Below the pieces are notes generated by a model. That model worked only from the letters and a program-made list of their open reading frames with translations, ran no database searches and was not told the origin of the DNA. Below, piece by piece: positions 16,867 to 32,249 of a stretch of 64,000 nt of DNA; the stretch's first letter is position 1, and every line of letters begins with the position of its first letter. Origin of the DNA: Candidatus Micrarchaeota archaeon. Its GTDB lineage: Archaea; Micrarchaeota; Micrarchaeia; Anstonellales; Anstonellaceae. The translations under genes were made by a program, and so were the position numbers. The stretch lies in assembly GCA_026396415.1 (NCBI GenBank), contig JAPLWX010000035.1, forward strand, positions 51,381 through 115,380, read 5' to 3'.

Positions 16867-17000
16867 GATTTCACCTCTGCAGTGCCTTGATGGGAGAGAA
16901 GGAGTATAAAAAAGTGCCTATCCGGACTTTTCAGGAAGCGCGCCATTGCCCTGCGCGCAAGCCCTTTAATCCTTCCACCCGGAATCTTCCCGGCAATGCC

Positions 17001-18182
17001 ATGGACGAAGATGGGAAAGAGGCGCGCTCCCTTGTGCAGGAGAAGAGGCTGATTGAGGAAAAGCTCAGGCTCGCGGGAGGGGACGATTTTAGCTTCCTGC
17101 TAAAGGATTGCTCGGACCTGTCGGACATAATAGACGAAATAGAGGATGTCAGCAGCCAGATGCACGAAAAGGAGCATGCCGCCTTTGAGGCGAAGATAAA
17201 GTTCTCAAGGAAAATCCGGCGCAAGGCAAAGGACATGTTGAATTTCGAGCAGCAGCTGGTGTCGGAATATGAGAACAAGCACATCACGCTTGAGCACGGG
17301 AAAAGGATGGTGTCCATCATCAAGCTGCTGCGCTCCAAAAGCGTGGACAAGGCCAGGCGCGAAGCCAAGGAATTCTACGGGTTCTTGGAGATGGGCTCGC
17401 GGCTTGAGATAATCAATGACTTGCTTCTGAAGAAAAGGGCGCAGGCTGAGCGCTCCTTGCGCGGCGTGGAGGCTTTGCTGTCGGATTTGGAATGGCTGGC
17501 AAAGGAGCCTGCGGCTGACGAGGAGAAGGTGAAAAGGCATGATGAAAAAGTGCAGATTGGCGTACAGCTTTCAAAAATTTGGCAGGGCCATGTGCAATCG
17601 CTCAAGTCCATGCCCATGCCGGGGCTTCTTGGGAAAATGAGGGAAGATGAACTTGGCAAAATCGGCTTTCCGGAGATAAGCGGCAATGAGGCAGAGGCGC
17701 TGGCGGCATTTTTGGAAAAGTCCGGGCTTGAAACGCGCTCCGCGGAGCAGCTGCATGACATGGCAAGGCAAAGCGAGCAGCTGCTGCGGCATTTGGGGCT
17801 GGACCTGCCGCTCTTCAGGCAGGAAGTGGCGGCAAGGAGGGCGTTCCTGTTTGGCATAATGTCATATTCCGCAGATTCACGCGCGCCAGATCTTGCCTAC
17901 CTGGCAAAGCACGATGAAGCCGCGCGCAGGCTGGCTGAGCGGTTATCAGAGCTTGAGAAGACAGGGGAGCAGGACAAGAGGGAATGGGAGCGCACGGAAA
18001 AGATAAGGCAAATGAAGGAGGAGCTTGCAGGCGCGGACAAGGCAACGTTTGAAAAGTCCCTGCAGGAGCTTCGCGCACTTCTGGATGTGCTGGACGGGAA
18101 AGCCGCGCCTGAAAAGGCAGAGGAAAGCAAAGAAGAAAATGGGCTGATTGGCTCGATATTGAAGCTATTCGGCAAAAAGTGA
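17001..18182 (+). CDS. Hypothetical coiled-coil protein
   Basis: The ORF is rich in Glu, Lys, Leu and Arg. The start is chosen at the ATG at 17001 (ORF 16887) to leave promoter space opposite the divergent htpX. Confidence 0.45.
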   Translation: MDEDGKEARSLVQEKRLIEEKLRLAGGDDFSFLLKDCSDLSDIIDEIEDVSSQMHEKEHAAFEAKIKFSRKIRRKAKDMLNFEQQLVSEYENKHITLEHGKRMVSIIKLLRSKSVDKARREAKEFYGFLEMGSRLEIINDLLLKKRAQAERSLRGVEALLSDLEWLAKEPAADEEKVKRHDEKVQIGVQLSKIWQGHVQSLKSMPMPGLLGKMREDELGKIGFPEISGNEAEALAAFLEKSGLETRSAEQLHDMARQSEQLLRHLGLDLPLFRQEVAARRAFLFGIMSYSADSRAPDLAYLAKHDEAARRLAERLSELEKTGEQDKREWERTEKIRQMKEELAGADKATFEKSLQELRALLDVLDGKAAPEKAEESKEENGLIGSILKLFGKK

Positions 18183-18198
18183 AAGCCCCCGACGAGGA
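18183..18198. repeat. att-like direct repeat AAGCCCCCGACGAGGA, identical to the tRNA-Thr 3' end region at 29877-29892
   Basis: A 16-nt exact match, read from the sequence. Confidence 0.6.
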
Positions 18199-18337
18199 GC
18201 TGCCTTTCGGTTAAACTTAAGGGGGCTACGGCGGGCAAAGCCATAACGCGAAACGACGGTTTTTTGTTGCAGAACGCCCCAAGTTTACTTGCCCCTTTTT
18301 TAATTTATCATGTAAATAATTAGAATAAGGTGGTTTT

Positions 18338-19168
18338 GTGTTCTTGTTTCAAACAAAATTTGAAGTGGTCTTTAAACCTGAATATGAACAGATGATGAAA
18401 ACCCTAAAGGATCCTAAGGCTTCATACAAAACCAAAGCAGATGCTATAGAGCAAGGTGGTTACTCAGTACTCCGAAAAGCGTTAGATGGAAACGTATATT
18501 TTGGTGAAGCAAGAGGAAAAGTCGATCTGTTTAAAGGAACAATGAGCTGCAATTTGATTGGTCTAAATTCGAATGATGCTGCAAAGGCAATTCTGAATAT
18601 TCAGAATGCAATTAACGAACCTCTTAAGTACATTGGATATGAGGCATTTGTGCAAACAGTAACAAACAAACAGGGTAAACTTGATGTTGTTTTTACTATC
18701 ACTAGCGATGTAGAAAAAAAGACAAACAGCAAGACAGCGGCAATAATATCAAGAGAAAAGATAAAGGAAAATGATTTTGTTTTGGTATATATGGCTAAAC
18801 CAGGTGGCAAAACATTGTCTGCTCGTGTTGGGCTCGAATACAAAAACGCAAATGAATTTACAGGACGTGCCCAAGATAGAGAAGAATATCGCCCGGTGAT
18901 TGCACAGTTTAAAGGGTTCGCCGCAAATGGAAATCTCTTATTCGATGTTGGTGGTAACTGGGATATACGGACTAACCTATCTAACGGAGACCTTGGCGAG
19001 ATGTATAAATTAAATGGCACCACAGTCGTAATTAATGATAAAGAAAAGATGACGGTAAGTGGAGGGAAGCTCCCTATAATAGGAACTGACGTGCTTCTCG
19101 GAACAGACAATAATGGCAAGAAAAAAGAGGTAAACATCAATAGCATTAAAGGCATTCAAATTGAATAG
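18338..19168 (+). CDS. Hypothetical protein of the integrated element (AT-rich, Lys/Asn-rich)
   Basis: 276-aa ORF whose composition differs from the host genes. There is no family match. Confidence 0.4.
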   Translation: MFLFQTKFEVVFKPEYEQMMKTLKDPKASYKTKADAIEQGGYSVLRKALDGNVYFGEARGKVDLFKGTMSCNLIGLNSNDAAKAILNIQNAINEPLKYIGYEAFVQTVTNKQGKLDVVFTITSDVEKKTNSKTAAIISREKIKENDFVLVYMAKPGGKTLSARVGLEYKNANEFTGRAQDREEYRPVIAQFKGFAANGNLLFDVGGNWDIRTNLSNGDLGEMYKLNGTTVVINDKEKMTVSGGKLPIIGTDVLLGTDNNGKKKEVNINSIKGIQIE

Positions 19169-20275
19169 ATATGTGAACCTGCTAACTACAGACAAAAAAA
19201 GGCAAAAAAAAAGAGACGTCTTAGCATACCCTAGCCTTCATCATGTGTCATTCTAACCTCACATAAAGAGCTATTACCTGGGCTTTCTCCTCGAGCTTGC
19301 AGGGTACTCCCTGCGCCTTATATTCCCCCATAAGCTGGCGCAGAGCGTCGCACTTTTGCTCGTTGTCGATGCCGGCAACGGCAGCAAGCCCATACGGCTT
19401 GCCTGAAAAAGCCCGTATTTGCTTTAGCCCCTCTGCTGCCAGCATCTCTATATCTTCCGGGGAAACTCCCCCTATTTTTTCCGATTCATCTTCTTGCATA
19501 CAATACACCTCTTTTTCCGACCACCTGCGGAGTGCGGGTGGTCTGTGGAAAAGCGCAGGGCAGGAGGAAGCCGTGAATGGTTGGGAGCTTCCTCTTCCCT
19601 GCGTGAACATTTGGCCAGACAGCAGACTTACTGCTGTCTTATAGCCTGTTTTGCGGCTCTAGGTGGTGGTTTCCTAGATGCTAGCCCGAACCTCGCCAAG
19701 CTTTTTTGTATGGTTTCCTCCCTGCTTTTTCGGTTTTTTGTTTTGTCTTTGCTCTCGCGGAAAGAGATACAGCCCATTGGTGCAAGAAAGTGGTACGTTG
19801 CTTCGCACCCAAGCCCATGCGAATCTACGCGATACAAGACATACCCTTTATACAGCAGCAGATCTGCCCACGCGAATTGTTACAGCGCAGTCGTCTTCTG
19901 TAAAGTATACTAGAAGCTCCTGCTCGTTTTCGTCTATTTTCAAGGTATCTACCTCCACTTATACGCTCTCTACCGCCTGCGGACTGGCAGTCTCCTATAG
20001 TTGGTAGCTGGCTCTCCCAGCCTCCCTGCCGCCTTTACTAGCCCCTTTCTCGCGCGGGGCAGGCGTTATTGTGGCTTGTTTTCCAAGCCGCCCTAGGGCA
20101 ACTTTCCGAAAAATTCGGAAAAAAATATGCCTATGCCCGCACGGTTTTACGGTTTAACGGTTTTACCCAGCACCCCCATTGTGCCCGCTTGCGCTAGGGA
20201 GCACAGGGTAAAAGCATAAAACCGAAATACCGCCCCACTAGGAGCAGTAAGCCTGGTTTTAGTGCCTTTAATGCC

Positions 20276-21595
20276 CTAGCCATTGCCCTCCGCTAGAGAC
20301 ACTAGCTTAACATTATCCTCGTTGCCTTCTGTAATTTTTAGCTTGCCATCTGCCACAAACTCGTCGAGCAGCTTGCGGACGTTGTTTACGCCCATGTCTA
20401 GCTTGCCCTTCACTCGCAGGGCTTCTACTAGCTTGCCTTTTGGCACCTGCCCGCCGCAGCCCAGTATAACGTCCCTTATAACCCGGAAATACTCTGCGCT
20501 TTGGCCCGCGGAGAGTGCGCGGTTGTGGTAGAGGAGCAGGTTGTTTACGGCAATAAGGTGGTTCTCCCACATGCCAAAACCAAAATCAAGCTCTTCCTGG
20601 CCCACAACAGCCTTGCCGTTTGCGGCAGCCAGCATGCCAGCAATCATAAAAATCTGGCTGTTCCTGGTTGTAAACGTCCGCATTATTTGCCAGCGCGCAT
20701 CGGTCTTTACAAAATTCCGCAAAGAATCCCGCGTTTTCGCAGCCAATTTTTTGCAAAGATTGCGGACAGCGTGCAGATCGTACTCGACAACGCGATAGCC
20801 GCCATCATTCCTTAGTGCCCCTAGGTCAATGGCATCAATCTTTTCTTTAAAGTCCTGCATAAGCTTTTGTCGATCCGCAAGAGTGGCAGCAATAAGGTCT
20901 GCCTTCTGCGCGTTAAAGTCGATAGTCTCCTGCTCCGGGACGATACGGTAAACAAGCAGCATTCGCTGGAATAACCCTTTTTCTAACAACGCGGTGTTTA
21001 TGTGCGACTCCATGTAGCTCCCTGCACAGATGGCAGTGTGCGATTGGTAGCTAAGTTTTCCCAGCGCCAGTACTTTAGTTATTATTCCTTCATCGTCTGT
21101 TGCCATCTGCAAGTTGTCCTGCAGGTTTTCAGAGTGCGGGCTGCTCTTAAGCAGGATCGAGCCTTCGTCCCAGAAAAGATAGTCTTCGCTACCGAGCAGA
21201 CCAACAATTATTTCGATTTCACCACCCGGCAGAGGCTTTATTGTGCCGAGCAGGGCTGCGTCCGTTGTCTTGGCGATATACTCTCCGCGTGCCCCGAGAT
21301 GCCGGAGCATGCTGCGAGTTGTTTTCATTGCCTCGCCCTTTCCCGAACCAGATTGCTGTATAAAGAAAAGGTGTATGCGCGGATAGTTGTATCTGCCTTG
21401 ATAGTGCAACCGAACATTTCTTTTTCCAAGCACAATACCAAGCATTTGCACGAACAGCGGAAGTGCTAGGTGCTCGTTTCCCCAGACACTCTTGCTATAA
21501 TACTGCAGCCAGATTGTGTATTGTTGCGCCACGTTTCCACCTAGTCTTTCCACATCCCAAACGTCATCCACCATATATTCACCTCTAATTTTCAC
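20276..21595 (-). CDS. Putative P-loop NTPase of the integrated element (replication or packaging-type ATPase, family unassigned)
   Basis: 439 aa with a Walker A-like FFIQQSGSGKGEAM and a plausible Walker B (LFWDEGSIL). Confidence 0.55.
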   Translation of the reverse strand: MKIRGEYMVDDVWDVERLGGNVAQQYTIWLQYYSKSVWGNEHLALPLFVQMLGIVLGKRNVRLHYQGRYNYPRIHLFFIQQSGSGKGEAMKTTRSMLRHLGARGEYIAKTTDAALLGTIKPLPGGEIEIIVGLLGSEDYLFWDEGSILLKSSPHSENLQDNLQMATDDEGIITKVLALGKLSYQSHTAICAGSYMESHINTALLEKGLFQRMLLVYRIVPEQETIDFNAQKADLIAATLADRQKLMQDFKEKIDAIDLGALRNDGGYRVVEYDLHAVRNLCKKLAAKTRDSLRNFVKTDARWQIMRTFTTRNSQIFMIAGMLAAANGKAVVGQEELDFGFGMWENHLIAVNNLLLYHNRALSAGQSAEYFRVIRDVILGCGGQVPKGKLVEALRVKGKLDMGVNNVRKLLDEFVADGKLKITEGNEDNVKLVSLAEGNG

Positions 21596-21993
21596 TAACT
21601 ACTTACTTCCTGCACCTGTCCGTTCCGGGACAGCCCTTTGCCCCAGCGCTGGGGTTTTCGCGCCCTTTATTCCGGGGCTTTTCTGGGAAAATTAGTAGGT
21701 CGTTTCCGCGACCGATTTTTCCTATACCTATCCTATGCCCAATCTTGTATATATAGTTATGTCTTCTTTTTACGTCGTAGGATTAATCAATCCTAAAAGT
21801 ATTTTGCGCAAAGCAAAGTAGGCAAACCTATGTGAAGCGCCAAGATTATTTTTTGCAAGCGAACGATCCTAAGCGTGCAACCAGCATCGATTTTCTATAC
21901 GCGAGTAGAAAAAAGAGGGCTATTTGTACTTTGGTGTAATTCTGTGTAACAATTTATTTTCTAGAACGCATTAGAACACACGGAGCGGGGCGG

Positions 21994-23334
21994 TCAAGCG
22001 CGTTGCGGCTCCTTCTTGGTGGCTTGCGGCAGGCTCTGCCAATCAAAGTTTATTTCTTTTAGCAACTGCATCGCTTCCTTGTCCTGCGGGCTGTTCGGGT
22101 CGAGGCTCTTATAGGCATTTAGCTGGTCTGCCATCGCTTGCATATACTGCTCGACCCTGTCTACGCGCAGCTGCATCCCCGCCATTGCGCTTGGTGCCTT
22201 GTTAATATAGGTATTTGTCTCGAAGTCGTAGCCGCAGCCAGTGCAGATTGCTTCGCCCAGTGGGTTTTGCCTGTGGCAGACTACGCACTCTCTGTTAACC
22301 TGTATTACAGCCTGCTCTTTTTTCTCGTAGCCATAGGTGCGCATCACTGCGCGCTTTACCTGCTCGTCTGTTATATGGCAGTAAGTTGCAGCCATCTTAG
22401 ACGTTAAAGTCCAACCCATTAATTTACATAGCAAAATCTCGTTTATACCTGGTTGCGCACCAAGCTCGGTTGCCCTGCTGTGCCGGAAGTTGTGCGGGTT
22501 CACCGATTTGGTAAAAAGCGGCACACCCATCTTCTTGCGGTAAGCATTAAGCCGCCCCACCACCATGCGAATACGCTTGGCAAGTCCGGCAGATCCTATT
22601 TGGGTAAGCGTCTGCTGCGAAACCCAAAGAGGCGCGTCGGGATCCTTGGGCAAGGGGTGCACAGCCAGCCACGCTTTTAGGTAGGCCACTGGCTCTATGC
22701 AGGTTACTAACCTCTCCCCCGTCTTGCCAGCAGGCACCTTTACCTCTATAAGCTCGACCATCTTGCGCTTGGCAGTACTGTCCTGCATCGGCTCCTCTTC
22801 TTTTACGAAGTTTAGGTTGCCTTTGCGCAGCATCTCGAATTCGCCCATGCGCATGCCCGAGTCGAAAAGCAAACTTAAAATTGCCTTGTCGAGCACGTCG
22901 CCATGCTTTAGCAGCGCCCGCATCTCCTCGCGGGATAATACTGGCTTGGCAATGCGCTTGTCTGCGCCGGATGCCCTGTGCTGCACCAGCTGCCTTATGC
23001 TCCTGTCGGCTACCTCCATGCTCCTGTCGCCCAAATGCACAAGGCAGTAAAGGCTGCCCAGGGTGCGCTTGGCACCTTTCTTTGTTTCGAACATATATTT
23101 TGCGGATCGGTTTATTTTTGCGACCGCGCTGCTTAGGTGCGCCTTGTCCCGCACCATCTCGGCTAAGCCCATTCCCGAAATAGTGGTGCAGAGGGCTAGG
23201 TCGCCAAAATACTTTAGTATGCGGACGTCGCCAATATTGTGCTCGACCGCATCTCGTGCGAAACGGAGGAAAAGTTCCTTGTCCTCCTCGGTAAAGGCGG
23301 TTTGCGACGCCAAGCGCTTTTCCCAATAAGCCAT
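21994..23334 (-). CDS. int: Tyrosine recombinase/integrase with a C-terminal zinc ribbon
   Basis: Catalytic-domain motifs NPHNFRHSRATEL and LMGWTLTSKMAATYCH (R..HxxR..Y), and a C-terminal CVVCHRQNP...CTGCGYDF. Confidence 0.85.
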   Translation of the reverse strand: MAYWEKRLASQTAFTEEDKELFLRFARDAVEHNIGDVRILKYFGDLALCTTISGMGLAEMVRDKAHLSSAVAKINRSAKYMFETKKGAKRTLGSLYCLVHLGDRSMEVADRSIRQLVQHRASGADKRIAKPVLSREEMRALLKHGDVLDKAILSLLFDSGMRMGEFEMLRKGNLNFVKEEEPMQDSTAKRKMVELIEVKVPAGKTGERLVTCIEPVAYLKAWLAVHPLPKDPDAPLWVSQQTLTQIGSAGLAKRIRMVVGRLNAYRKKMGVPLFTKSVNPHNFRHSRATELGAQPGINEILLCKLMGWTLTSKMAATYCHITDEQVKRAVMRTYGYEKKEQAVIQVNRECVVCHRQNPLGEAICTGCGYDFETNTYINKAPSAMAGMQLRVDRVEQYMQAMADQLNAYKSLDPNSPQDKEAMQLLKEINFDWQSLPQATKKEPQRA

Positions 23335-23413
23335 GTTGTAAATTATGGGCAGAAAAGGAGATAATCCTTTGGCTTTTTACCTCGTAGCAGACCAAAGTTT
23401 AACTTAAAGCTAC

Positions 23414-23425
23414 AAGCCCCCGACG
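23414..23425. repeat. Second att-like partial copy AAGCCCCCGACG of the tRNA-Thr 3' end
   Basis: A 12-nt exact match adjacent to the E1 integrase end, followed by a degenerate continuation (ttgaac shared). Confidence 0.45.
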
Positions 23426-23513
23426 CTCGTCTTGAACGGCTCAAGAAGCACCCATCTGCTTCGTCGATGACTGGTCTTGCTCAAGAGGTTTATAAGGACT
23501 GCTCTATTTCGGG

Positions 23514-23783
23514 CTAGTGAACGAAGATTATCAAAAACCCAACGACAATTGAACAATATGCCCAGCTAATCTTGTAGTATATTTGGGGCAAGGTTGTGCT
23601 GCTGCCATAGGCAAATAATCCAATAATACCCATAACCAGTCCGATGTTTGCGTACCAGACAAGCCAAGTGGCTGGATTGACCAATAAGATGGCGTACAAG
23701 TTTATGGCCAACGTGTTGGCAAATGTAGAGATTCTGCCTACAAACTGTTTTTCGACTAGATAGCCTGCAACCACTAATGACAA
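23514..23783 (-). CDS. Small membrane protein (about 3 TM helices)
   Basis: 89 aa, hydrophobic. It is the last gene of the RM plus membrane-protein string. Confidence 0.4.
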   Translation of the reverse strand: MSLVVAGYLVEKQFVGRISTFANTLAINLYAILLVNPATWLVWYANIGLVMGIIGLFAYGSSTTLPQIYYKISWAYCSIVVGFLIIFVH

Positions 23784-23844
23784 AGCAGGAAGCGTTTTGA
23801 CGAAAAAGTCTGGTAATTGAGAAACCCAAAGGTCAGAGATGTTA

Positions 23845-24729
23845 TCACCTTATTTCAGATAGACACTTCTTTATGCATGCCCTCACGCGGGTGACTTTTG
23901 CCATAAATCCAATCTGTTCCTTTGGCGGCTCAACCTCTCGTTTTGGATAATCAATTCGTAGTATCCTCGATTTGGGTATTATACGCGAAGAAGCATCGCG
24001 TGGAACGACACGGATACAATCATTTTCCCAGCGGATAAAGAAGGCTTCAAACGGCTTCTTTTGAAAATCAGTGTAGATGAAGATTTTTGGCTTTTGCTGA
24101 CATTGACCATGTATTATTGCAGTGGCTAGAAGAATAAACAACATGATTATTCCATTTGCAGCGATTGAAACTGCGTCGAAAATTCCAAACGGTGCGAGTG
24201 TGTGTGCATAACAAAGTAGCGCAAAAAGAATGAAGGCGAGTGGCGCCCACCAATAGCTCCAAACTTGAATTTGATTGTTATTCTTTAGATTGTTTTTTGC
24301 GTATTCTTCATGTTTCTCAAAAAAATCAAGGCGTTCGGCGTGGCGCTTTAGCTCCTTTTGAGTCATTTGTAGCAAGACATTGGAGAGTATAAACAGCATA
24401 AACAAGTCTAAGATAAGAAGCCAATTTCCATAAAGAAAAACAAACAGAGCAGCTAGTACTTGGCTGTCACTTGCGCCTAGTTGAGGTGGAAGTTGTAAAA
24501 GATGAAACAGAAACCTTAACAATAAGATTATAACTGCGGGCACGTAAAAAATTCGAGTAAAAAAACCAAGGCCGGTAACATAATCATTTTCTTTCGCATT
24601 GGAATAAAATGACCATTCGTCATTGATAACCTTTCCGAATAGATATAATATGAAGCCGAAAAAACCCGCTATTATCAAGATTGCCTCTTTGTATGTCTGT
24701 ACAAATGAAATAATCTCTGTGCCGTTCAT
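23845..24729 (-). CDS. Polytopic membrane protein, translationally coupled to the RM enzyme
   Basis: 294 aa with about 6 TM segments. Its ATG overlaps the RM stop in a TGATG arrangement at 24727-24731. Confidence 0.6.
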   Translation of the reverse strand: MNGTEIISFVQTYKEAILIIAGFFGFILYLFGKVINDEWSFYSNAKENDYVTGLGFFTRIFYVPAVIILLLRFLFHLLQLPPQLGASDSQVLAALFVFLYGNWLLILDLFMLFILSNVLLQMTQKELKRHAERLDFFEKHEEYAKNNLKNNNQIQVWSYWWAPLAFILFALLCYAHTLAPFGIFDAVSIAANGIIMLFILLATAIIHGQCQQKPKIFIYTDFQKKPFEAFFIRWENDCIRVVPRDASSRIIPKSRILRIDYPKREVEPPKEQIGFMAKVTRVRACIKKCLSEIR

Positions 24730-27700
24730 CAGTCAACCGCCTTCTCAATGACCTTGCGCTCTTCTGAACTTATTCCATAAAGCTCGAAGACAAGGTCATC
24801 GATTTCATCCTCAAGCTTCATGGTATCCGCATTTGCATCTTTCTTTTTGAGTTTGACTAGTTCTTTGACTGTGGAGATTATTTTTTCGGAAATTACTTCT
24901 TCAGCTTTGTTAGAGGGAAACTTAATTGGTAATTTTTCAACGTAGCCTTTGCTATAATTATAATATTTGCCTTGAACAAACGGCGATATCGCAGTAATGT
25001 ATACTCCAAGAAGTTTTGAGTTCAACAACCCCAAAAGAAGATATATGTTGATTTTTTTTGGGATAATCGCAACTGATGAGTCTGACAAATAGGCGCCAGT
25101 GTCATCAAGAGCAAATCTATTCTTTTCAGCTATCCTCGGGCAGACTATTTTTTGCTTTTCAAAAAATTCTGGTTCTCTGGCTCTCCAGAGCTCAAACCAT
25201 TCCTTATTCCACTGCATAAACCCCTTTCCATCTAGTACCCTGCCACTTAGCTTGTCCTTGAATTGAGCGAGATATTTTGCAGCACCCGGATAGAGACGCA
25301 GGTCAACTGGTGTCGCGTTTGCTTCATAAGGAAACAACAGCTCTTCGCTACAAAACGAAGCCGAGTATTTTCGAATATTTTTGCCTCGTATAACTTTTTT
25401 CAAGATGCGTTCTTCGATTTTATATGATTCGATATTCTGTTTGAGCACATAATAAATATCATCCGAACCTTCTCCACCGCAAGTAACGCCTTGCATTATT
25501 TTCTCAGTATAATTCGCAAGTGTATCGAGTTCTTTGAGCCGATTAATCAGGAAACCTTTTCCAACCGAACTTATATTCCATCCAGCGCTATTCAGAGTTT
25601 CTTGTTTTATAGTGCTGAGTTTGAAGTAATCATCATTGTATTTTATTTCAGACCACTGTCTCCGAACGATAGACAATAGTTCTTCGGGGGCTATTTCTTC
25701 TGCCTTTGATTTAAATTCAACGTAAATGAATGAACTTGGCGTGTCATTTTCAAAGATAATTATGCACGGGTAATTTGTTGCATCTGTGAATATTTTTATG
25801 TCTCCAAAGTCAGTAATCTGCTTGAGCGCGACATTCTTTTGGAGATAGTCTCGTAATGCTTCAGCATAACCAACTTTAAGAAAACGATTTTGAGTAATAT
25901 ATCCTAATTTTCCATTTTTGTTAAGCATCTTTGCTCCAAGTTCGATGAAAAGGACGTAAATGTCAAACTTTCCTTTAGCAGAAAGATAGTTCATGTAAGC
26001 CGCCATTGTCTGCTTCTGCATTTTCAATATTCCTAGCCAAGGCGGATTTCCCACCACAAAATCGTACTTCTTTTTTTTCATCTCGTCGCTCGCGTCCTTG
26101 TCCTTTGCAAGGCTTTTTCCTGTAGCGCCGTAGAAGTGCGCGAGGCTTGTCTGCTCGGTGGGCATCTCAAGCGAATCGGTTTCGTAAATCTTGAAGCGTG
26201 GAATCTTGAAGCCCCTGTTTTCCTTGACGGCTTTTGAGTAAAGGTCAATTATCTGGAAAAGCAGATTCATTTCGGTAATATTCACCGCGAACGGATTTAT
26301 GTCAAAGCCATGTACATGCATGGCAACGGAGTTTACAATCTCCTCGCACTCTTTGGGAGATAGACGCGCGTACACTTCTGGCCAGCGCTTGTTGTCGAGC
26401 GCCTCCTTCGGAGTCGCCTTTTCGAATTTCACTGCCTGCCGCGCAATCAGCCTGCGCGCGGCACGGACAAGGAAGCCACCTGAACCACAGGCAGGGTCTA
26501 TCAGGTCCTTATTCTCAATCGCCTTGGATGGGATGTAATCCACAGCGTCAAGTATGTAGTCGATAACCTCGTCAGGAGTGTAAAACTCGCCAAGTCTCTT
26601 CCTTTCATCCTTGGGCAGGTATTTCTCGTAAAGCTTGCCAAGAATGTCCCTGTCCACCTTGGCGAAGTTGAATTGGTTAAGAATCCAAAGCACACGGTTG
26701 AGTGCCCTGTCAAGTTCGCCATCGCCGCTTTCGTACCAGTCAAGCGGGTTGTCTTTTTCGTAAAAGTGCCCGTAGATGTTCTTTGCCCCGTTATAGGAAA
26801 ACTGGACAATCTGCTTGAATACGCCGGTTTCCCCAAGAATGGGCTCGGCAAGCTGCTCGCGCAGCCTTTCAATGCCTCCGTTGGATATTTTCTTGCCAAG
26901 AAGAATCTTGTCCTCGCAAATCCTGATGAAAAGCAGCCTGTTTATGAGCAGGTAGATTGATTCCTTGCAGAACACTTGCTTGTTTTCCTCTTCCTTGTCA
27001 TCAGGGCGGTTGGAGAGTGCTTTCCAAATAAAGTAACCTGAAAAGTCTGCATATTTCTTGTACTTGCCTTCCGTCTTCAGCTCATAGCGAGCTATGTCCG
27101 CAGCGTGCTTTGTGTTGTTGCCGTTCGCCTTTTTTATCTCCTCAAGCTCGCCCTTTGTCTGCTTGTACTGTGCATAACCTGCATAATATTCGTCAAAAGC
27201 TGCATAAGTGTACTGCCTCATAAGGTCATTTGAAATGTAGTTAAGCTGCTCAATGAGTCTTTCAAACCCCTTTTCTTCCGCAACATCTATTGTCGCATAA
27301 TACTCGTCGAATTTGTCGTATTTTGCCTCGCTCCAAACCTGCTCCTTGGTTATGTTACCAAGGGAGAGAATCTGCTCGGCTTCTCTAGTGGATATTTTGT
27401 CTTCCGATGCCCTCTTCGCGTCAATCATTGCCTTGAAATCCAGGTCTGCTCGAAGAAGCCTGCCCTGTTTTGTGGCTTCCCAGAGAAGGAAACGATAACC
27501 GTTGGTCAGCCCCACAAACCGAGTGGAGGTGTCCGCGTATTTGCCTGCCTGGTCGCGCCATTTCTCAGCGTCTAAGCTTTCCTTCGGACGCTTGGTTTCA
27601 ATAAGAACGGCACGAGCGCCGTTCTCATCCAGCATGGTAACATCAGTGCGGCTACGCTCGTAGCGTATGAGCTTGCTGTCAAATCCCAAGACTTCCTCGC

Positions 27701-27824
27701 AGAAAAACCTGCCAAGGCGCGGGCTGAAGTCATGTTCGAGGGTGTCTATGGTTATCTCTGAGTTTATTCTCTTGAACGCCTTGAGAACCTTTTCAGTGAA
27801 GCTGATATCTGCCTTTGGAACCAT
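24729..27824 (-). CDS. Type IIG (MmeI-like) fused restriction endonuclease plus N6-adenine methyltransferase plus target-recognition domain
   Basis: 1031 aa. The N-terminus has a PD-(D/E)xK-like TDVTMLD...VLIETKRP. Gamma-class MTase motif I (IDPACGSGGFLVRAA) precedes motif IV (FDFVVGNPPW), and about 430 aa of C-terminal TRD follow. Confidence 0.85.
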   Translation of the reverse strand: MVPKADISFTEKVLKAFKRINSEITIDTLEHDFSPRLGRFFCEEVLGFDSKLIRYERSRTDVTMLDENGARAVLIETKRPKESLDAEKWRDQAGKYADTSTRFVGLTNGYRFLLWEATKQGRLLRADLDFKAMIDAKRASEDKISTREAEQILSLGNITKEQVWSEAKYDKFDEYYATIDVAEEKGFERLIEQLNYISNDLMRQYTYAAFDEYYAGYAQYKQTKGELEEIKKANGNNTKHAADIARYELKTEGKYKKYADFSGYFIWKALSNRPDDKEEENKQVFCKESIYLLINRLLFIRICEDKILLGKKISNGGIERLREQLAEPILGETGVFKQIVQFSYNGAKNIYGHFYEKDNPLDWYESGDGELDRALNRVLWILNQFNFAKVDRDILGKLYEKYLPKDERKRLGEFYTPDEVIDYILDAVDYIPSKAIENKDLIDPACGSGGFLVRAARRLIARQAVKFEKATPKEALDNKRWPEVYARLSPKECEEIVNSVAMHVHGFDINPFAVNITEMNLLFQIIDLYSKAVKENRGFKIPRFKIYETDSLEMPTEQTSLAHFYGATGKSLAKDKDASDEMKKKKYDFVVGNPPWLGILKMQKQTMAAYMNYLSAKGKFDIYVLFIELGAKMLNKNGKLGYITQNRFLKVGYAEALRDYLQKNVALKQITDFGDIKIFTDATNYPCIIIFENDTPSSFIYVEFKSKAEEIAPEELLSIVRRQWSEIKYNDDYFKLSTIKQETLNSAGWNISSVGKGFLINRLKELDTLANYTEKIMQGVTCGGEGSDDIYYVLKQNIESYKIEERILKKVIRGKNIRKYSASFCSEELLFPYEANATPVDLRLYPGAAKYLAQFKDKLSGRVLDGKGFMQWNKEWFELWRAREPEFFEKQKIVCPRIAEKNRFALDDTGAYLSDSSVAIIPKKINIYLLLGLLNSKLLGVYITAISPFVQGKYYNYSKGYVEKLPIKFPSNKAEEVISEKIISTVKELVKLKKKDANADTMKLEDEIDDLVFELYGISSEERKVIEKAVD

Positions 27825-28071
27825 GGAACTCCCTACTGCTTTCCCATGTTCCCATTTTTAAAGCTAATTAGACGTGGATGCCGGTGGAATTTGAACAGCT
27901 TATGCGCGAGGTGTGACGCGAGGGCTTTGCCTGCGACCTCTCGCGCGGGACTATTTAAAGAAATGACGCGACTTTTGCGCGAGATTTTCAGCACTCCACC
28001 GAATAGGAACTTTATAGGATGTACCTCTAAAAATCCCTATGAATTATTGTCTGCTACTATCAGCGTATAAC

Positions 28072-28216
28072 ATTGAGCAGCTTTGAGCAGCTGCGCAGCA
28101 TTGATATACTGGAGGCGATAGCTGCTCAAATATCAACGTTTGGATAGCGTTTATCGCGCAGGAAACGGCGTTTGAGCTGCTCAAAGTTGTTTATATATGA
28201 TTGAGCAGCTCCGGCT
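28072..28216. repeat. Iteron cassette A: five copies of TTGAGCAGCT/AGCTGCTCAA in both orientations around a conserved core ACGTTTGGATAGCGTTTATCGCG...GAAACGGCGTTTGAGCTGC
   Basis: Sites at about 28075, 28084, 28131, 28175 and 28202, read directly. Confidence 0.7.
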
Positions 28217-28340
28217 TTGCGCCTGTTTCTACGCCTAATTTTTTCTGCTAGCTGGAAAAGCTTGACAGACGATGAAACTTGCGCCTATTCTGCGCCTAAA
28301 ATGGCGTTCTGGCTGCCAATTGCGCCTGATTCAAGCGAAT
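28217..28340. repeat. Five copies of a (T)TGCGCCTR motif between the two cassettes
   Basis: ttgcgcctg, acgcctaa, ttgcgcctatt, ctgcgcctaaa and ttgcgcctgatt. Confidence 0.5.
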
Positions 28341-28370
28341 CGGCTCCAGATAATATTTCTCTGCTAGTTT

Positions 28371-28518
28371 GATTGCGCAGCTTGCACGCACATGTATACT
28401 GGAGGCGCGAGCTGCGCAACCTTTAACGTTTGGATAGCGTTTATCGCGTGAGAAACGGCGTTTGAGCTGCGCAACTTCCTTTATATACGATTGCGCAGCT
28501 CTGCTAGCTGCGCAACGT
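28371..28518. repeat. Iteron cassette B: paralog of cassette A with every site changed coordinately to TTGCGCAGCT/AGCTGCGCAA
   Basis: Sites at about 28375, 28411, 28467, 28491 and 28507. The core ACGTTTGGATAGCGTTTATCGCG and GAAACGGCGTTTGAGCTGC is identical to cassette A. Confidence 0.7.
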
Positions 28519-29739
28519 TCAGAGCCGTTCCGAAAGGTTGAGCGCGACCAGCTTTCTTGCGAGAAAATCACGCGTTTCGTTGTCCTTCATCAGCTCGTTC
28601 AGAACATCGTTGCCTTTCTTGCACTCGTTTTCTATTTGGAGCGCAACTTCAAGCTGGAGAACGGTGCCGCACTTTGTGCAGAATTTGGAAGTTGGCGAAT
28701 TTGGCTGCTTGCAGCGGTGGCAATCTTTTGCGCGGAAGCTATCCTCTTTCTTTTCCTGCCCGTTTTTCAGCCCGTGGAGCTGGAGAATCGCGGAATCCAC
28801 ATCTCGCCCTGACAAATGGACATAAACCGAAGCCATTTCGCTGCTTTGGGTCCAGCCGAAATATTCCTTCATCTGCGCCTCTGTCAGTTTGTTTGCCAAA
28901 GCGGTTGCGCGCGAGTGGCGGAAGAGGTGCGGATTCACCCTTTTCTTTATCCCTGCCTTTTTTGCCAGCCTGCGAAGGAGAATGTTCGCGGTTGAGTAGT
29001 TGAAAGGGAGCAGGATTTTCCTGCTCGCCCTGGACAACCACAGCGGGCATTCTGAATCGTTTCTTTTTGGGTGGATATCGAGCCAACTGGCAAGAGAAGG
29101 GGCTGAAGCGACAATCCTGACGCGCCTGTCGCCCGTTTTGCCGCTTACCCTAAGGATTGCGCCGTAATCGTCAAAAGAGACATTCCTTATGCGAAGGGTA
29201 AGAAGCTCGGCTATTCGGCAGCCGCTTTCATAGAGGATTTGCACAAAAGCCTTGTCGCGTGGATGTTCAGCCTGCTCTGAAAGCGCCTTTACCTCCTCTT
29301 CCGTGAGAAGTTCTTCCGGCAGCTTGTGCTTGGCGTTGCGAACGCTTGCCTTTATCCATTTCACGCTTGCGGGATAGTCCTCGCCGCCGCCAAGCCATTT
29401 GTAAAAGCATTTTATTGCGACTTTGAAGTCCTTTTTGCTCCATTCGGAATACTTGCTTTGTTCGATTTTTACGACAATATCCTTTATCCGTTCCTTTTTG
29501 GCGTTCTTCAGGCCGGTTTTAATCATTCCCGAAAGCTGCGAAAGCAAAATCAGATATTTGATGTTCCTAGCTATGGAAAGTCCCCTTGACACGCCGTCCT
29601 TGTAAAAGCCAAGAATGAGCTTTTTGTCGTTTGGCGAGACGTCTTTCGTCTTTTCTAGCCAAAGGAGCTTTGCCTCTAGCGTCCGCTTCAGGTGGTGTAT
29701 ATCGAATGGTTCCATGCTGAATCCCTCTGACGAAACCAC
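28519..29739 (-). CDS. int: Tyrosine recombinase/integrase with a C-terminal zinc ribbon (paralog of 21994-23334)
   Basis: NPHLFRHSRATALA, YFGWTQSSEMASVYVH and a C-terminal CHRCKQPN...CTKCG. It is adjacent to the tRNA-Thr att site. Confidence 0.85.
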   Translation of the reverse strand: MVSSEGFSMEPFDIHHLKRTLEAKLLWLEKTKDVSPNDKKLILGFYKDGVSRGLSIARNIKYLILLSQLSGMIKTGLKNAKKERIKDIVVKIEQSKYSEWSKKDFKVAIKCFYKWLGGGEDYPASVKWIKASVRNAKHKLPEELLTEEEVKALSEQAEHPRDKAFVQILYESGCRIAELLTLRIRNVSFDDYGAILRVSGKTGDRRVRIVASAPSLASWLDIHPKRNDSECPLWLSRASRKILLPFNYSTANILLRRLAKKAGIKKRVNPHLFRHSRATALANKLTEAQMKEYFGWTQSSEMASVYVHLSGRDVDSAILQLHGLKNGQEKKEDSFRAKDCHRCKQPNSPTSKFCTKCGTVLQLEVALQIENECKKGNDVLNELMKDNETRDFLARKLVALNLSERL

Positions 29740-29877
29740 TTCATTATGCTTGGTGTATCATGCTACATTTTCATGCCATGCCAAGCTGATGCTTCTTGAG
29801 CCGGAAAAGACGCGCCTTCCCATGCGGGGCTACGAAAAAAGCCCTTTTTGGGGTGGGGAATGCTGACTGCTGTCAGA

Positions 29878-30076
29878 AGCCCCCGACGAGGATTGAACTC
29901 GTGACCTCGTGCTTTGTGGCTGGGATAAGCTTCTCTTTCTTTTCCCAGGGCTCCCGATTGTTCGGATTACCGAACAATGGGCACATTTTCCCCCTGGGAA
30001 AATGTCGTTTCTTTCTCCGCAGAAGAGAAAGAAAAGGCCTTACCATGCACGCGCTCTACCGCTGAGCTACAGGGGC
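29878..30076 (-). tRNA. tRNA-Thr (anticodon GGU) interrupted by a ~127-nt intron at the canonical 37/38 position
   Basis: Manual folding gives acceptor GCCCCUG/CGGGGGC, D arm GCUC-AGCGGUA-GAGC, anticodon stem CGUGC/GCACG with loop AUGGUAA, variable loop AGGUC and T arm ACGAG-UUCAAUC-CUCGU. The 3' exon begins at AGCACG after a hairpin-rich intron. Confidence 0.7.
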
Positions 30077-30195: not shown

Positions 30196-31509
30196 CTAGG
30201 CTTTCTTTGAAAACACTTCTTTTAAAACAATCGTATCTTCCCTGCCCGCGCCCACGCCAATCACATAGATGGGCACCCTGACTTCGCCTGAGATGAACTT
30301 GAGGTAGGCCTGCGCCCGGGCGGGAAGGGACTTCATGCCGCCTTTTGCGCACGCGCGCCACTTGTCAGCCCCGATGTCGTCCCAGCCTGCGAAGGATTTG
30401 TAGATTGGCCTGCAGCGCGCGATGTCAGTGTAGGAAGCGGGGGGAATGAGCAGCTTCTTCCCGTCAAGCTCATAGTGCGTGCAAACCTGCACCTTCTGCA
30501 TCCCTGAAAGCGTGTCAAGCCTGGTGAATGCCAGGCCGGTAAGCCCGTTCACGTGCGCTGCGTAGCGCAATGTGGGAAGGTCGAGCCAGCCTATGCGCCT
30601 TGGGCGGCCGGTGGTGGTGCCGTATTCCCCGCCCTTGTCGCGTATGGCCTGCCCTGTTGCATCGTTAAGCTCAGTTGGAAGCGGGCCTGCGCCCACCCGG
30701 CTGGTGTAGACTTTCACCACGCCTATCACTTCATCGATTGCCGTGGGGCCTATGCCCGAGCCTGTGCATGCACCGCCCGCAGAGGTGTTTGACGAGGTGC
30801 CAAAGGGATACATGCCATGGTCGATGTCAAGCATGGTGGCCTGCGCGCCTTCGAAGAGCACCTGCTTTTTCTTCGAAAGCGCATCCGAGAGGATTTCGCC
30901 TGTGTCTGCCACAAAGGGCGCGAGCCGCTTGCCGTACTCAGTGTACAGCTTGCAAATCTCGTCTTCGCTTTGAGTGAAGTCCACGCCGTAAACTTCCTTG
31001 AGGAGCTTCACTTTCAGGGTGTGCATGGTGTGGAGCTTTTCGCGGAACAGCTCAGGCTGCAACAGCTCCCCCACGCGTATGCCGAATCGCGCGGCCTTGT
31101 CAGAGTAGCACGGGCCTATGCCGCGCTTCGTGGTGCCCGCTGCAAGCGCGCCTTTCCTCCCCTCCTCTGCCCCGTCCTGGGCAACATGGTAGGGCATCAC
31201 AAGGTGCACACGAGGCGAGATTTTGATGTTGGGCTTTATCCCAACTGCGTCAAGCTGCCCCAACTCCTCGAAGAATTTTTTCGGCTCCAGCACCACGCCG
31301 TTTCCTATGATGTTTATCTTCTCCGGGTAAAGCACGCCGGACGGGACGTGGTGGAAGGCGAACTTCCTGCCGCCAGAGACTATGGTATGCCCGGCATTCG
31401 CGCCGCCGCAGTAGCGCACCACGATGTCTGCCTGCGCCGCGTAATAGTCCACTACCTTGCCCTTGCCCTCGTCGCCCCACTGCGTTCCCACCACTATTGC
31501 AAATGTCAT
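30196..31509 (-). CDS. purA: Adenylosuccinate synthetase
   Basis: N-terminal VVGTQWGDEGKGK P-loop, and GIGPCYSDK and TTGRPRR motifs. The start is the ATG at 31509. Confidence 0.9.
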   Translation of the reverse strand: MTFAIVVGTQWGDEGKGKVVDYYAAQADIVVRYCGGANAGHTIVSGGRKFAFHHVPSGVLYPEKINIIGNGVVLEPKKFFEELGQLDAVGIKPNIKISPRVHLVMPYHVAQDGAEEGRKGALAAGTTKRGIGPCYSDKAARFGIRVGELLQPELFREKLHTMHTLKVKLLKEVYGVDFTQSEDEICKLYTEYGKRLAPFVADTGEILSDALSKKKQVLFEGAQATMLDIDHGMYPFGTSSNTSAGGACTGSGIGPTAIDEVIGVVKVYTSRVGAGPLPTELNDATGQAIRDKGGEYGTTTGRPRRIGWLDLPTLRYAAHVNGLTGLAFTRLDTLSGMQKVQVCTHYELDGKKLLIPPASYTDIARCRPIYKSFAGWDDIGADKWRACAKGGMKSLPARAQAYLKFISGEVRVPIYVIGVGAGREDTIVLKEVFSKKA

Positions 31510-31520
31510 GTTACCACCAT

Positions 31521-32249
31521 TCACTTTTCGATTACCCACACCATTTCCTGCTTGGATGATTTCAGCTTCTGTTTTTTAAACCCGCCGAAAACTTGCCATC
31601 TTGAAAAGCCTGCGAGGCGCAGCAAAAGCTCGAATTCGCGCTTGTAGATGAAGGCTATCTTTACGCTGTACGAGCCGAATTTCCTGCCATTTTTCATTGC
31701 CCAATAGCAAGATGAGACGATTTGCTCGGTTTCATCTGAAAAAGCGCTGAAGTCCTTCCTCACAATGCCGCCTTTCCTGTACCTGACCACCTCGTGCCCG
31801 TAGTCATTCACCATCACATCGTGGGATGGATAGAAGAAATTGAGCACGAGCTTCCCGCCCGGGGCAAGGTGGCTGCGGAGGCATTTGAGGGACGACAGCT
31901 GGTCGTCAATGGTGAGATTGTGCAGGAACGCGCGGAAAGGCACGATGATGAGCGCAAACTTCTGGCGCAGGCTGAAATTGCGCATGTCCGCAAGCTTCAC
32001 GCGCGATTTGAGCCCGCGAGCCCCTGCTTTTTTTTCAAGCGCACGAAGCATTCCGCGGGAAATGTCAATCCCGTACGCGTCTATCCCTGCCGCAAGCAGG
32101 GGAAGATACACCCTGCCTGTGCCGCAGCCGACCTCAAGCACTTTTCCGCGCGCCTTTTTTGCCTCGCGCAGGTAAAAGCTTGTGTCGCCCATGAATTCCG
32201 CAGGGCAGCTGACATCGTAGATTTTCACCGCCTTGTCGAACTCCGCCAT
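31521..32249 (-). CDS. Class I SAM-dependent methyltransferase
   Basis: VLEVGCGTGR motif I. An 11-nt gap to purA downstream. Confidence 0.8.
   Translation of the reverse strand: MAEFDKAVKIYDVSCPAEFMGDTSFYLREAKKARGKVLEVGCGTGRVYLPLLAAGIDAYGIDISRGMLRALEKKAGARGLKSRVKLADMRNFSLRQKFALIIVPFRAFLHNLTIDDQLSSLKCLRSHLAPGGKLVLNFFYPSHDVMVNDYGHEVVRYRKGGIVRKDFSAFSDETEQIVSSCYWAMKNGRKFGSYSVKIAFIYKREFELLLRLAGFSRWQVFGGFKKQKLKSSKQEMVWVIEK

Follow-up and report, generated by a model that had tools for sequence, protein, structure and literature searches.

Since DPANN archaea have very small genomes and the routes by which they gain genes are little understood, a low-GC interval beside a tRNA gene in one of them raises an obvious question: is it a single island, or a series of separate mobile elements inserted one after the other, and if so, what inserted them? 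The locus in question lies in a stretch of 64 kb (the window, to whose coordinates all positions refer) of the genome of a tiny symbiotic Micrarchaeota (DPANN) archaeon. This genome, denoted G000, comprises 1.74 Mb in 52 contigs and is 92% complete; labels of the type G0xx denote relatives. With a probability of about 0.85, the interval 18183–29892 consists of two separate mobile elements, E1 and E2, which have integrated site-specifically at the 3' end of a tRNA-Thr(GGU) gene. Read along the locus, the order is tRNA, E2, a 12-nt copy of the tRNA end, E1, a 16-nt copy and the chromosomal gene orf431.

18199–23413: element E1, 5.2 kb, plasmid-like
23426–29876: element E2, 6.5 kb, a 2.1-kb backbone and a 4.4-kb cargo slot

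Serial integration at tRNA genes is a well-known process and its recombination mechanism is textbook knowledge. The integrase and element family described here looks new, its variant features being an invariant four-cysteine (Cys4) motif on a XerA-like integrase and a compact backbone with exchangeable cargo. A 2026 survey of archaeal proviruses states that it came upon no provirus among 1,356 Micrarchaeota genomes (PMC13573593), yet G000 alone holds ~17 integrases of one family, many of them adjoining tRNA genes.

Boundaries at the tRNA-Thr gene

The integration target is a tRNA gene interrupted by an intron:

29878–30076, minus strand: tRNA-Thr(GGU) with a structured intron of ~127 nt at about 29912–30038 (Rfam, ARAGORN)

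The Rfam tRNA model matches over the full length of 29878–30076 with 44.5 bits (gathering threshold 29) and ~130 nt inserted in the anticodon loop, and ARAGORN, when introns are allowed, reports tRNA-Thr(ggt) and puts an intron of 127 nt at position 37. In its default mode ARAGORN missed the gene, a limit of the tool that the other two results resolve. Folding of the precursor gives a cloverleaf that encloses an intron of four hairpins (z = -5.0 against shuffles), and a contig joint from 29911 to 30039, which skips the 127 nt, is seen in run X5; the read data used throughout are assembled Logan contigs only, and contigs drop rare variants. The intron varies in length among congeners, being absent from several (e.g., G010, G005 and G009), roughly 20–90 nt long in others and ~146 nt long in G013, whose whole tRNA aligns at 68%. 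Contigs of X5 and X7 that come from co-occurring relatives likewise carry tRNA-Thr alleles without an intron or with a shorter one, and about 15 of the 32 tRNAs used by the integrase family in other genomes have introns. A large tRNA intron gives no protection against integration, because the crossover sits at the 3' acceptor end.

Three copies of that end mark the junctions:

18183–18198: distal att copy of 16 nt, comprising the tRNA-Thr 3' end and one further base (identical to 29877–29892)
23414–23425: middle att copy at the E2/E1 junction, 12 nt
29877–29892: tRNA-proximal att copy, likewise the tRNA 3' end with one further base

Position 29877 lies one base past the discriminator base of the tRNA. 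The 12-mer AAGCCCCCGACG occurs exactly three times in the 64 kb (18183, 23414 and 29877), always on the plus strand, against a mean of 0.27 copies in dinucleotide-preserving shuffles, of which 0 out of 100 reached three. Read in the sense of the tRNA, the junctions run from the tRNA (...TCCTCGTCGGGGGCTT) into E2, from E2 (...GACGAGCGTCGGGGGCTT) into E1, and from E1 (...CAGCTCCTCGTCGGGGGCTT) into TCA, the stop of orf431. Direct repeats of the target tRNA sequence are present at both ends of each element. The three junctions would read the same whether E1 or E2 had arrived first, and the attempt to order the two events was dropped.

How short the crossover region may be is indicated by a sister of E2 in the relative G017. 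There, the tRNA-Thr(UGU) ends in ...TCTCGGCGGGGGCT and the distal copy in ...GAGCGTCGGGGGCTT, with a common core of only 9 nt, CGGGGGCTT; judged from this comparison, strand exchange would have to be confined to at most about 9 bp (CGGGGGCTT) at the end of the acceptor stem. The longer identities of 12 and 16 nt are the amount of tRNA sequence that each element happens to carry. According to a 2021 review, att sites of 8, 11 and 13 bp occur in other archaeal elements (PMC8371274), so a short core is not unusual. Next to the core lies a small dyad:

29863–29876: dyad CTGAC-N4-GTCAG at the very start of E2, beside the core

A dyad directly after the tRNA is kept, with changed letters, in all four of the closest Int2-type elements (Int2 being the integrase of E2) and could serve as a terminator for the tRNA or as a site bound by the integrase.

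Composition and self-comparison agree with these boundaries. Measured per kilobase, GC content is 0.55–0.60 in the flanks and 0.38–0.54 inside the interval. When 17–31 kb is compared with itself, E1 and E2 share no DNA beyond the att core and are therefore not duplicates of each other. Each has instead its own pair of inverted repeats (I1 in E1, I2 in E2) just inside both of its ends:

18204–18243: E1 terminal arm, far end; inverted repeat I1, partner of 23370–23409
23370–23409: E1 terminal arm, integrase side; inverted repeat I1, 40 nt, 70% complementary
23414–23504: E2 distal arm, part of the conserved backbone, holding the inverted-repeat arm 23425–23450
29790–29815: E2 arm, integrase side; inverted repeat I2 with 23425–23450, 26 nt, 85% complementary

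On the chromosomal side, RtcB, an M48 peptidase and orf431 form one flank; purA, a methyltransferase and a DHH phosphoesterase form the other.

16887–18182, plus strand: orf431 (431 aa), whose stop abuts the distal att copy; no Pfam family
30196–31539, minus strand: purA (adenylosuccinate synthetase), Pfam 556 bits

Orthologues of orf431 (69–72% aa identity) adjoin the tRNA-Thr island in G005, G022 and G017. The left boundary of E1 is fixed by the repeat together with the orf431 stop, and its right boundary by the sister element of E2.

This sister lies on a contig of G017 (C130; L042, 9774–14934), on which an intron-less tRNA-Thr(UGU) is followed by an integrase 98% identical to Int2 at the amino acid level and then by the non-coding cassettes described below. 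The contig matches window 27904–29901 with 93.0% nucleotide identity over 1999 nt. Its cargo differs from that of E2 and consists of one gene for a 962-aa FHA-domain protein. Beyond this gene, similarity resumes at window 23414–23504 (96.7% over 91 nt) and ends exactly at the att core. Homology at both ends that stops at the 12-mer argues that E2 is a discrete unit, with the middle 12-mer as its left and the tRNA end as its right boundary. The conserved backbone of E2 comprises 23414–23504 and 27904–29888, about 2.1 kb, and encloses 4.4 kb of exchangeable cargo between sharp breakpoints. The orf431 gene on the same G017 contig is only 75% identical to the window at the nucleotide level, and on a second G017 contig (C143; L010) an Int2-like gene and a tRNA 3' exon are 94% identical where the purA side is 81% identical. 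The E2 backbone is thus far less diverged than host genes (93–97% versus 75–81%), a disparity that points to recent movement.

In G017, integrases of Int2 type with 98% amino acid identity stand beside two tRNA-Thr isoacceptors, UGU on C130 and GGU on C143. One integrase clade therefore uses several tRNA-Thr isoacceptors with a common 3' core. Recombination between the two copies might rearrange the chromosome, or the contigs of this metagenome-assembled genome (MAG) may be chimeric. Within G000, an 81% copy of the ~90-nt distal arm of E2, with a tRNA-Thr(UGU)-type core CGGCGGGGGCTT, is found at C15:33145–33235, 2.3 kb past another integrase of the family (C15:29686–30894); a full tRNA upstream was not found. 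A "tRNA-Gly with a 1270-nt intron" that ARAGORN places over this integrase is probably spurious, and all ARAGORN "tRNAs" with introns of ~1 to 1.3 kb on C15 and C17 were treated as such.

Occupancy of the site was followed in 12 tRNA-Thr loci from relatives, ten of the same genus and two of other genera. All 12 have a purA match beside the tRNA-Thr (62–89% aa identity in the ten, about 30% in the two). No integrase is present in 11 of them within ~9 kb or to the contig end. The twelfth, that of G005, holds a single element of 6.4 kb, flanked by the tRNA-Thr on one side and by a 17-nt repeat of the tRNA end on the other; its integrase is 40% identical to Int2, and the repeat abuts the orf431 stop just as the distal copy does in the window. 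Occupancy being mixed among the relatives, the tRNA-Thr site is variably occupied, as expected of an integration hotspot. The gene order in G022, which has no integrase here, is purA, tRNA-Thr, a second tRNA-end copy, an NYN-domain gene, a 597-aa gene, orf431, M48 and RtcB, and the two genes between tRNA-Thr and orf431 have chromosomal GC content.

The two tRNA-Thr 3'-end copies of G022 (contig C3; L035, 9096–9200) lie 87 nt apart with no gene between them and may be the scar of a lost element. A chromosomal gene of 570–600 aa stands between the tRNA-Thr island and orf431 in G022 (L035, 10262–12055; 597 aa) and in G017 (L042, 15006–16715), with 76% aa identity; it is missing from G000 and from the G005 locus, hence gene loss beside the integration hotspot.

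As to the integrated state itself, contigs of three runs (two flagged as possible sources, one not) bridge all three junctions in the tandem form. The anatomy given in the original prediction, namely 16-nt and 12-nt repeats of the 3' end of an intron-containing tRNA-Thr, within an interval richer in AT than its flanks, is confirmed in each of these points, and both the self-comparison and the inspection of relatives' tRNA-Thr sites that it had recommended came out in its favour; neither of the outcomes that it had named as refuting was observed.

We propose the following mechanism. Each element encodes its own classical XerA-like tyrosine integrase, the gene of which is left intact by integration. 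The integrase would recombine attP on the element, presumably in circular form, with that end of the tRNA gene which encodes the acceptor stem; a copy of the last bases of the tRNA would come from the element, so that the tRNA would stay whole and a partial copy would come to lie at the far junction. Two elements using the same core and integrating serially would yield the tandem of tRNA, E2, E1 and orf431.

The integrases, their family and the cargo

Each element carries one integrase gene near its tRNA-proximal repeat:

21994–23334, minus strand: Int1, tyrosine integrase of E1, 446 aa, with a predicted C-terminal Cys4 ribbon (Pfam Phage_integrase 42.0 bits)
28519–29739, minus strand: Int2, tyrosine integrase of E2, 406 aa, with a predicted C-terminal Cys4 ribbon (Pfam Phage_integrase 77.6 bits)

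The cut-off of the Pfam model (PF00589) is 27.1 bits. The start of Int1 lies 79 nt from the middle repeat and that of Int2 138 nt from the tRNA end; both are full open reading frames without internal stops, that is, the genes are intact in the integrated state. The two proteins are 30% identical (E 9e-33) and belong to two subfamilies, not being close relatives. In both, the catalytic tyrosine is followed by the motif CxxC-x10-CxxC. Across 44 aligned sequences including Int1 and Int2, the catalytic-domain residues R175, H271, R274, H275, W296 and Y306 are invariant, and so are C340, C343, C354 and C357 in 44 of 44.

Pfam zinc-ribbon models stay below their cut-off on the Cys4 module (22.6 versus 25 bits). 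An AlphaFold model of Int2 (mean pLDDT 83.3) displays a helical N-domain, the catalytic domain, short strands at residues 338–360 (pLDDT about 58–84) and two C-terminal helices; as modelled, the Cys4 module would have the make-up of a zinc ribbon, with two CxxC knuckles on short beta-hairpins. The nearest solved folds found by Foldseek are archaeal XerA (5hxy, E 1.5e-10; 4a8e), followed by XerH, IntI4, Cre and lambda Int. Since these nearest structures are 270–350 residues long, the last ~70 residues of Int2 are an added module. At the sequence level, phmmer matches Int2 to the archaeal XerA structures with E-values of 6.6e-17 and 1.3e-15, and XerA_Arch is the top NCBIfam model with 112.7 bits, against an equivalog cut-off of 220. 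Members of the family are mobile-element integrases and not the housekeeping XerA resolvase.

G000 contains 17 integrase genes of this family, 16 of them with the Cys4 motif. Among 22 congeners of 0.8–1.4 Mb, 11 have any family match, and the number per genome ranges from 0 to 10; G000 is both the largest genome of the genus sample and the richest in integrases. Besides Int2, four G000 integrases come after a tRNA or lie beside one (Leu, Trp, Ser and Ala). When Rfam was run on seven other G000 integrase loci, a full tRNA was found beside only one, so an intact tRNA does not accompany every paralogue. Scanning named genome records gave 80 family loci, nearly all titled Micrarchaeota; the few titled Iainarchaeum, Bathyarchaeia, Parvarchaeota, Nanoarchaeia, Methanocellales or bacteria may reflect binning errors. 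The Cys4 motif is present in 75 of the 77 complete family reading frames from other genomes. A co-directional tRNA ends no more than 500 nt upstream in 32 of 68 family loci from other genomes, these being the loci with at least 500 nt upstream and the distance being taken to the integrase match. The four closest relatives of Int2 (98, 98, 80 and 69% identical) follow tRNA-Thr(UGU), (GGU), (CGU) and (UGU), respectively, although the GGU tRNA among them is mislabelled by ARAGORN.

In the Int1 subfamily, a co-directional tRNA precedes five of eight loci (Ser, Glu, Ala, Ser and Ala). The nearest relative of Int1 (53%) stands at a tRNA-Ala on contig C7 of G000. The low-GC element at this tRNA-Ala(UGC) is ~17 kb long (G000:C7:31023–47949; L132) and bounded by a 14-nt repeat; it has an Int1-type integrase, a D5_N/DUF5906 primase-helicase-type protein, a retropepsin-like aspartyl protease domain and a Type III restriction-modification (R-M) pair (ResIII helicase and N6_N4 methylase).

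Between integrase and cargo, the E2 backbone contains non-coding DNA:

27904–28065: non-coding backbone with GCGCGAG-type repeats, the cargo-side backbone edge (G017 homology starts at 27904)
28066–28530: two non-coding cassettes of ~130 nt, built on TTGAGCAGCT / TTGCGCAGCT sites in both orientations

The cassettes are kept in G017, and at least four repeats are present in G007 after an integrase 69–70% identical to Int2. They are 85–89% identical at the nucleotide level to cassettes of the tRNA-Leu elements on contig C29 (G000:C29:17051–17533 and 19673–19821), although the adjoining integrases there are only 47% identical to Int2 in amino acids. Such cassettes, better conserved than the adjoining gene, point either to a function that depends on their sequence or to a recent exchange of modules. 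The cassettes lie ~1.4 kb from the att core, which is far for classical arm-type sites.

The cargo slot of E2 encodes three proteins:

23514–23783, minus strand: hydrophobic protein of 89 aa, possibly a membrane protein; no family match in Pfam, PHROGs, NCBIfam or PADLOC
23845–24729, minus strand: multi-pass membrane protein of 294 aa, whose start overlaps the stop of the R-M gene; no family match in the same libraries
24729–27824, minus strand: predicted Type IIG R-M enzyme of 1031 aa (Pfam, PADLOC)

The R-M protein matches Pfam Eco57I (110.6 bits), N6_Mtase (79.1 bits) and TaqI_C (64.1 bits) and the PADLOC model REase_MTase_IIG (197.6 bits). Its nuclease part is weak (HSDR_N_2 18.4 bits versus a cut-off of 25). 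The arrangement is that of a putative Type IIG enzyme, in which a nuclease (weak here), a gamma-class N6-adenine methyltransferase and a target-recognition domain would be combined in one polypeptide.

The genes of E1 are more isolated:

18338–19168, plus strand: near-orphan gene, 276 aa; no family in Pfam, PHROGs, NCBIfam or PADLOC
19248–19610, minus strand: gene of 120 aa; no match in Pfam, PHROGs or NCBIfam
19611–20275: non-coding stretch of 665 nt with three tandem ACGGTTT(T/A) units and an inverted partner (20141–20232)
20276–21595, minus strand: P-loop ATPase of 439 aa, DUF3987-like and helicase-type, with Walker A GSGKG and Walker B WDEG

The 276-aa protein has four matches among 1.84 billion representatives and a 34% paralogue in the integrase region on contig C21 of G000, and the 120-aa protein has a 37% paralogue inside the tRNA-Ala element on C7. 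Among the genes of these integrase regions, on C21 and C7, are those for a TraG/HerA-type ATPase, a D5-like helicase and a Type III R-M system. The 665-nt stretch, on account of its repeats, is a candidate replication origin. At 19874, within this stretch, contigs of X1, X3 and X5 carry 14 extra bases, which reflect either a difference in assembly or variation in the length of a tandem repeat.

DUF3987 is usually the helicase part of phage and plasmid primase-helicases. The E1 ATPase matches the Pfam DUF3987 model with 21.3 bits, below the cut-off of 27, and no primase domain was found in it. In an Atlas feature search (score 0.98), 23 of the 30 nearest clusters are of DUF3987 type, mostly labelled viral (89–95% Viruses). 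Among 5.8 billion proteins it has only three relatives, one of which carries PF13148; a sequence search of the PDB returned nothing at E up to 1, a first metagenome scan no relatives, and none of 175 other genomes of the order contains it. The absence of the ATPase from the order, together with the paralogues of the small genes in other integrase regions, indicates that the cargo is foreign. PADLOC assigned no defence family to the E1 genes, the E2 membrane proteins or the FHA cargo of G017.

Possible alternatives: fossils, proviruses or a composite island

Several observations weigh against two mobile elements with the boundaries given above. The middle repeat is only 12 nt long. The distal att copy, which abuts orf431 in G000 and G005 alike, may predate the present elements. 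The boundaries of E1 have no support from an independent copy, as no sister element of E1 was found anywhere; neither its ATPase nor its 276-aa protein has relatives among IMG/VR viral contigs, and a second metagenome scan (alignment A2) gave only two partial matches to ATPase residues 45–91 around Walker A. In E2, no gene for replication or transfer can be recognised. The MAG G017 has ~5% contamination, so its two E2-like contigs are perhaps not from one cell, and its assembly could be chimeric at the repeated integrase. Finally, no excision, circle or empty-site joint is present in contigs of X1, X3, X5 and X7, a type of data that can miss rare forms.

Some of these points are those on which the best-surviving alternative is built, according to which the elements are fossils that integrated once, are now unable to excise or transfer and form a fixed island. 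The lack of excision or circle joints in the contigs of four runs, the near-orphan genes of E1 with no sister element, the lack of a replication gene in E2 and the position of the distal repeat beside orf431 in G005 as well would all fit. However, both integrase reading frames are intact with all invariant catalytic and cysteine residues, both att arms and the inverted repeats are kept, and the E2 backbone is 93–97% identical between species where flanking genes reach 75–81%, which suggests recent movement; contig data, moreover, cannot reveal rare excision. We consider the fossil explanation unlikely, though it deserves to be kept in mind.

That E1, E2 or both are proviruses of some archaeal virus group so far unrecognised, as the original prediction had allowed, is far less credible. 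It could appeal to the viral labels of the clusters nearest to the E1 ATPase and to the several genes of E1 and E2 without assignable function. But the elements measure only 5–6.5 kb, the two E1 genes tried have no IMG/VR relatives, PHROGs reveals no capsid, portal or terminase family, and the sister elements within G000 carry plasmid-type modules (D5-like helicase, TraG/HerA-type ATPase and R-M systems). The only PHROGs families with a stated function are integrase for Int1 and Int2 and DNA methyltransferase and restriction endonuclease for the R-M gene. Since no virion gene (capsid, portal or terminase) was detected in scans with Pfam, PHROGs, NCBIfam and PADLOC, from which orphan genes could still hide unfamiliar ones, "integrative plasmid / cargo element" is a more fitting designation than "provirus". 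The same prediction spoke of a family of related elements, a description to be refined in that the integrases, only 30% identical, belong to two subfamilies and E1 and E2 have no DNA in common beyond the att core. Its serial integration is supported by the G017 sister, the occupancy of the site in G005, the lack of an integrase at 11 of the 12 relatives' loci and the association of the family with tRNAs, and its paralogous Cys4 integrases, P-loop ATPase, R-M gene and cassettes are all in place.

The least probable alternative, a single composite island mobilised as a unit with the middle 12-mer as a chance match or relic, has the shortness of that repeat (12 nt) and the same tandem arrangement in all three runs to recommend it, yet it is already largely refuted by the G017 homology that ends exactly at the 12-mer, by the position of the 12-mer 79 nt upstream of Int1, which mirrors that of the tRNA and Int2, by the separate terminal inverted-repeat pair of each half, by the absence of common DNA beyond the core and by a shuffle expectation of 0.27 for the 12-mer in the whole window.

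The reading as two separate, serially integrated elements makes the tRNA-Thr stack a clean, cross-validated case, with boundaries defined to the base, in a lineage that has been little studied. It displays a backbone that appears to have moved recently with exchange of its cargo, an R-M system among that cargo, and a Cys4 module behind the catalytic tyrosine that is a testable addition to the tyrosine-recombinase fold. Going further, E2-type units could be a widespread and undescribed cargo-shuttling platform of Micrarchaeota, composed of a zinc-ribbon XerA-like integrase, conserved non-coding cassettes and two short att arms. Its 2.1-kb backbone would move between species while R-M or signalling genes were swapped in a sharply bounded slot, the zinc-ribbon tail or a trans factor would read the cassettes, and repeated insertion would be a main route of gene gain in reduced symbiont genomes. 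This is a speculative extension, which we put forward as a possibility while leaning towards its being wrong in at least some part.

Comparison with known systems

The stack shares a tyrosine recombinase and an archaeal tRNA target with elements of the SSV1 type (suicidal, type I). In these, attP lies inside the integrase gene, which is split upon integration, as described in the 2021 review (PMC8371274). An SSV-type element is ruled out here, where neither integrase gene is split and the att copies are found 79–138 nt outside the genes.

Among its cargo, the E2 R-M protein is similar to Type IIG enzymes of the Eco57I / MmeI type, with Eco57I, N6_Mtase, MmeI_Mtase and TaqI_C in a single 1031-aa chain. 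It differs from a typical Type IIG enzyme in that its N-terminal nuclease domain is only weakly seen.

The closest parallel to the whole arrangement is the tRNA-Leu stack in G000 itself, which has integrases of the same family and the same layout of a tRNA followed by tandem integrase units. Unlike it, the tRNA-Thr stack pairs two integrase subfamilies and carries an R-M enzyme and a helicase-like ATPase.

The archaeal XerA dimer resolvase (5hxy, 4a8e) provides the best match to these integrases in both sequence and fold. In contrast to the resolvase, they number ~17 per genome in G000, stand beside tRNAs in low-GC islands and possess an extra C-terminal module of ~70 residues.

In the literature search no description was found of a Cys4 XerA-like integrase type or of integrated elements in Micrarchaeota, although subscription journals were outside its coverage and "undescribed" is therefore provisional. 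The words "zinc", "DPANN" and "Micrarchaeota" are likewise absent from the 2021 review of archaeal tyrosine recombinases (PMC8371274). In the classification of that review, the nearest class is formed by the classical type II or pNOB8-type, XerA-related archaeal integrases, which have in common with Int1 and Int2 an intact integrase gene, a tRNA target and direct tRNA repeats at both ends (PMC8371274). The review also notes that tandem integrants at one locus allow the exchange of modules (PMC8371274). The pNOB8 signature given there is R..YxxR..Y (PMC8371274), whereas the integrases described here have R..HxxR..Y, as in XerA. They further differ from the classical type in the invariant Cys4 motif and two helices that follow the catalytic tyrosine, and in their host lineage, the Micrarchaeota.

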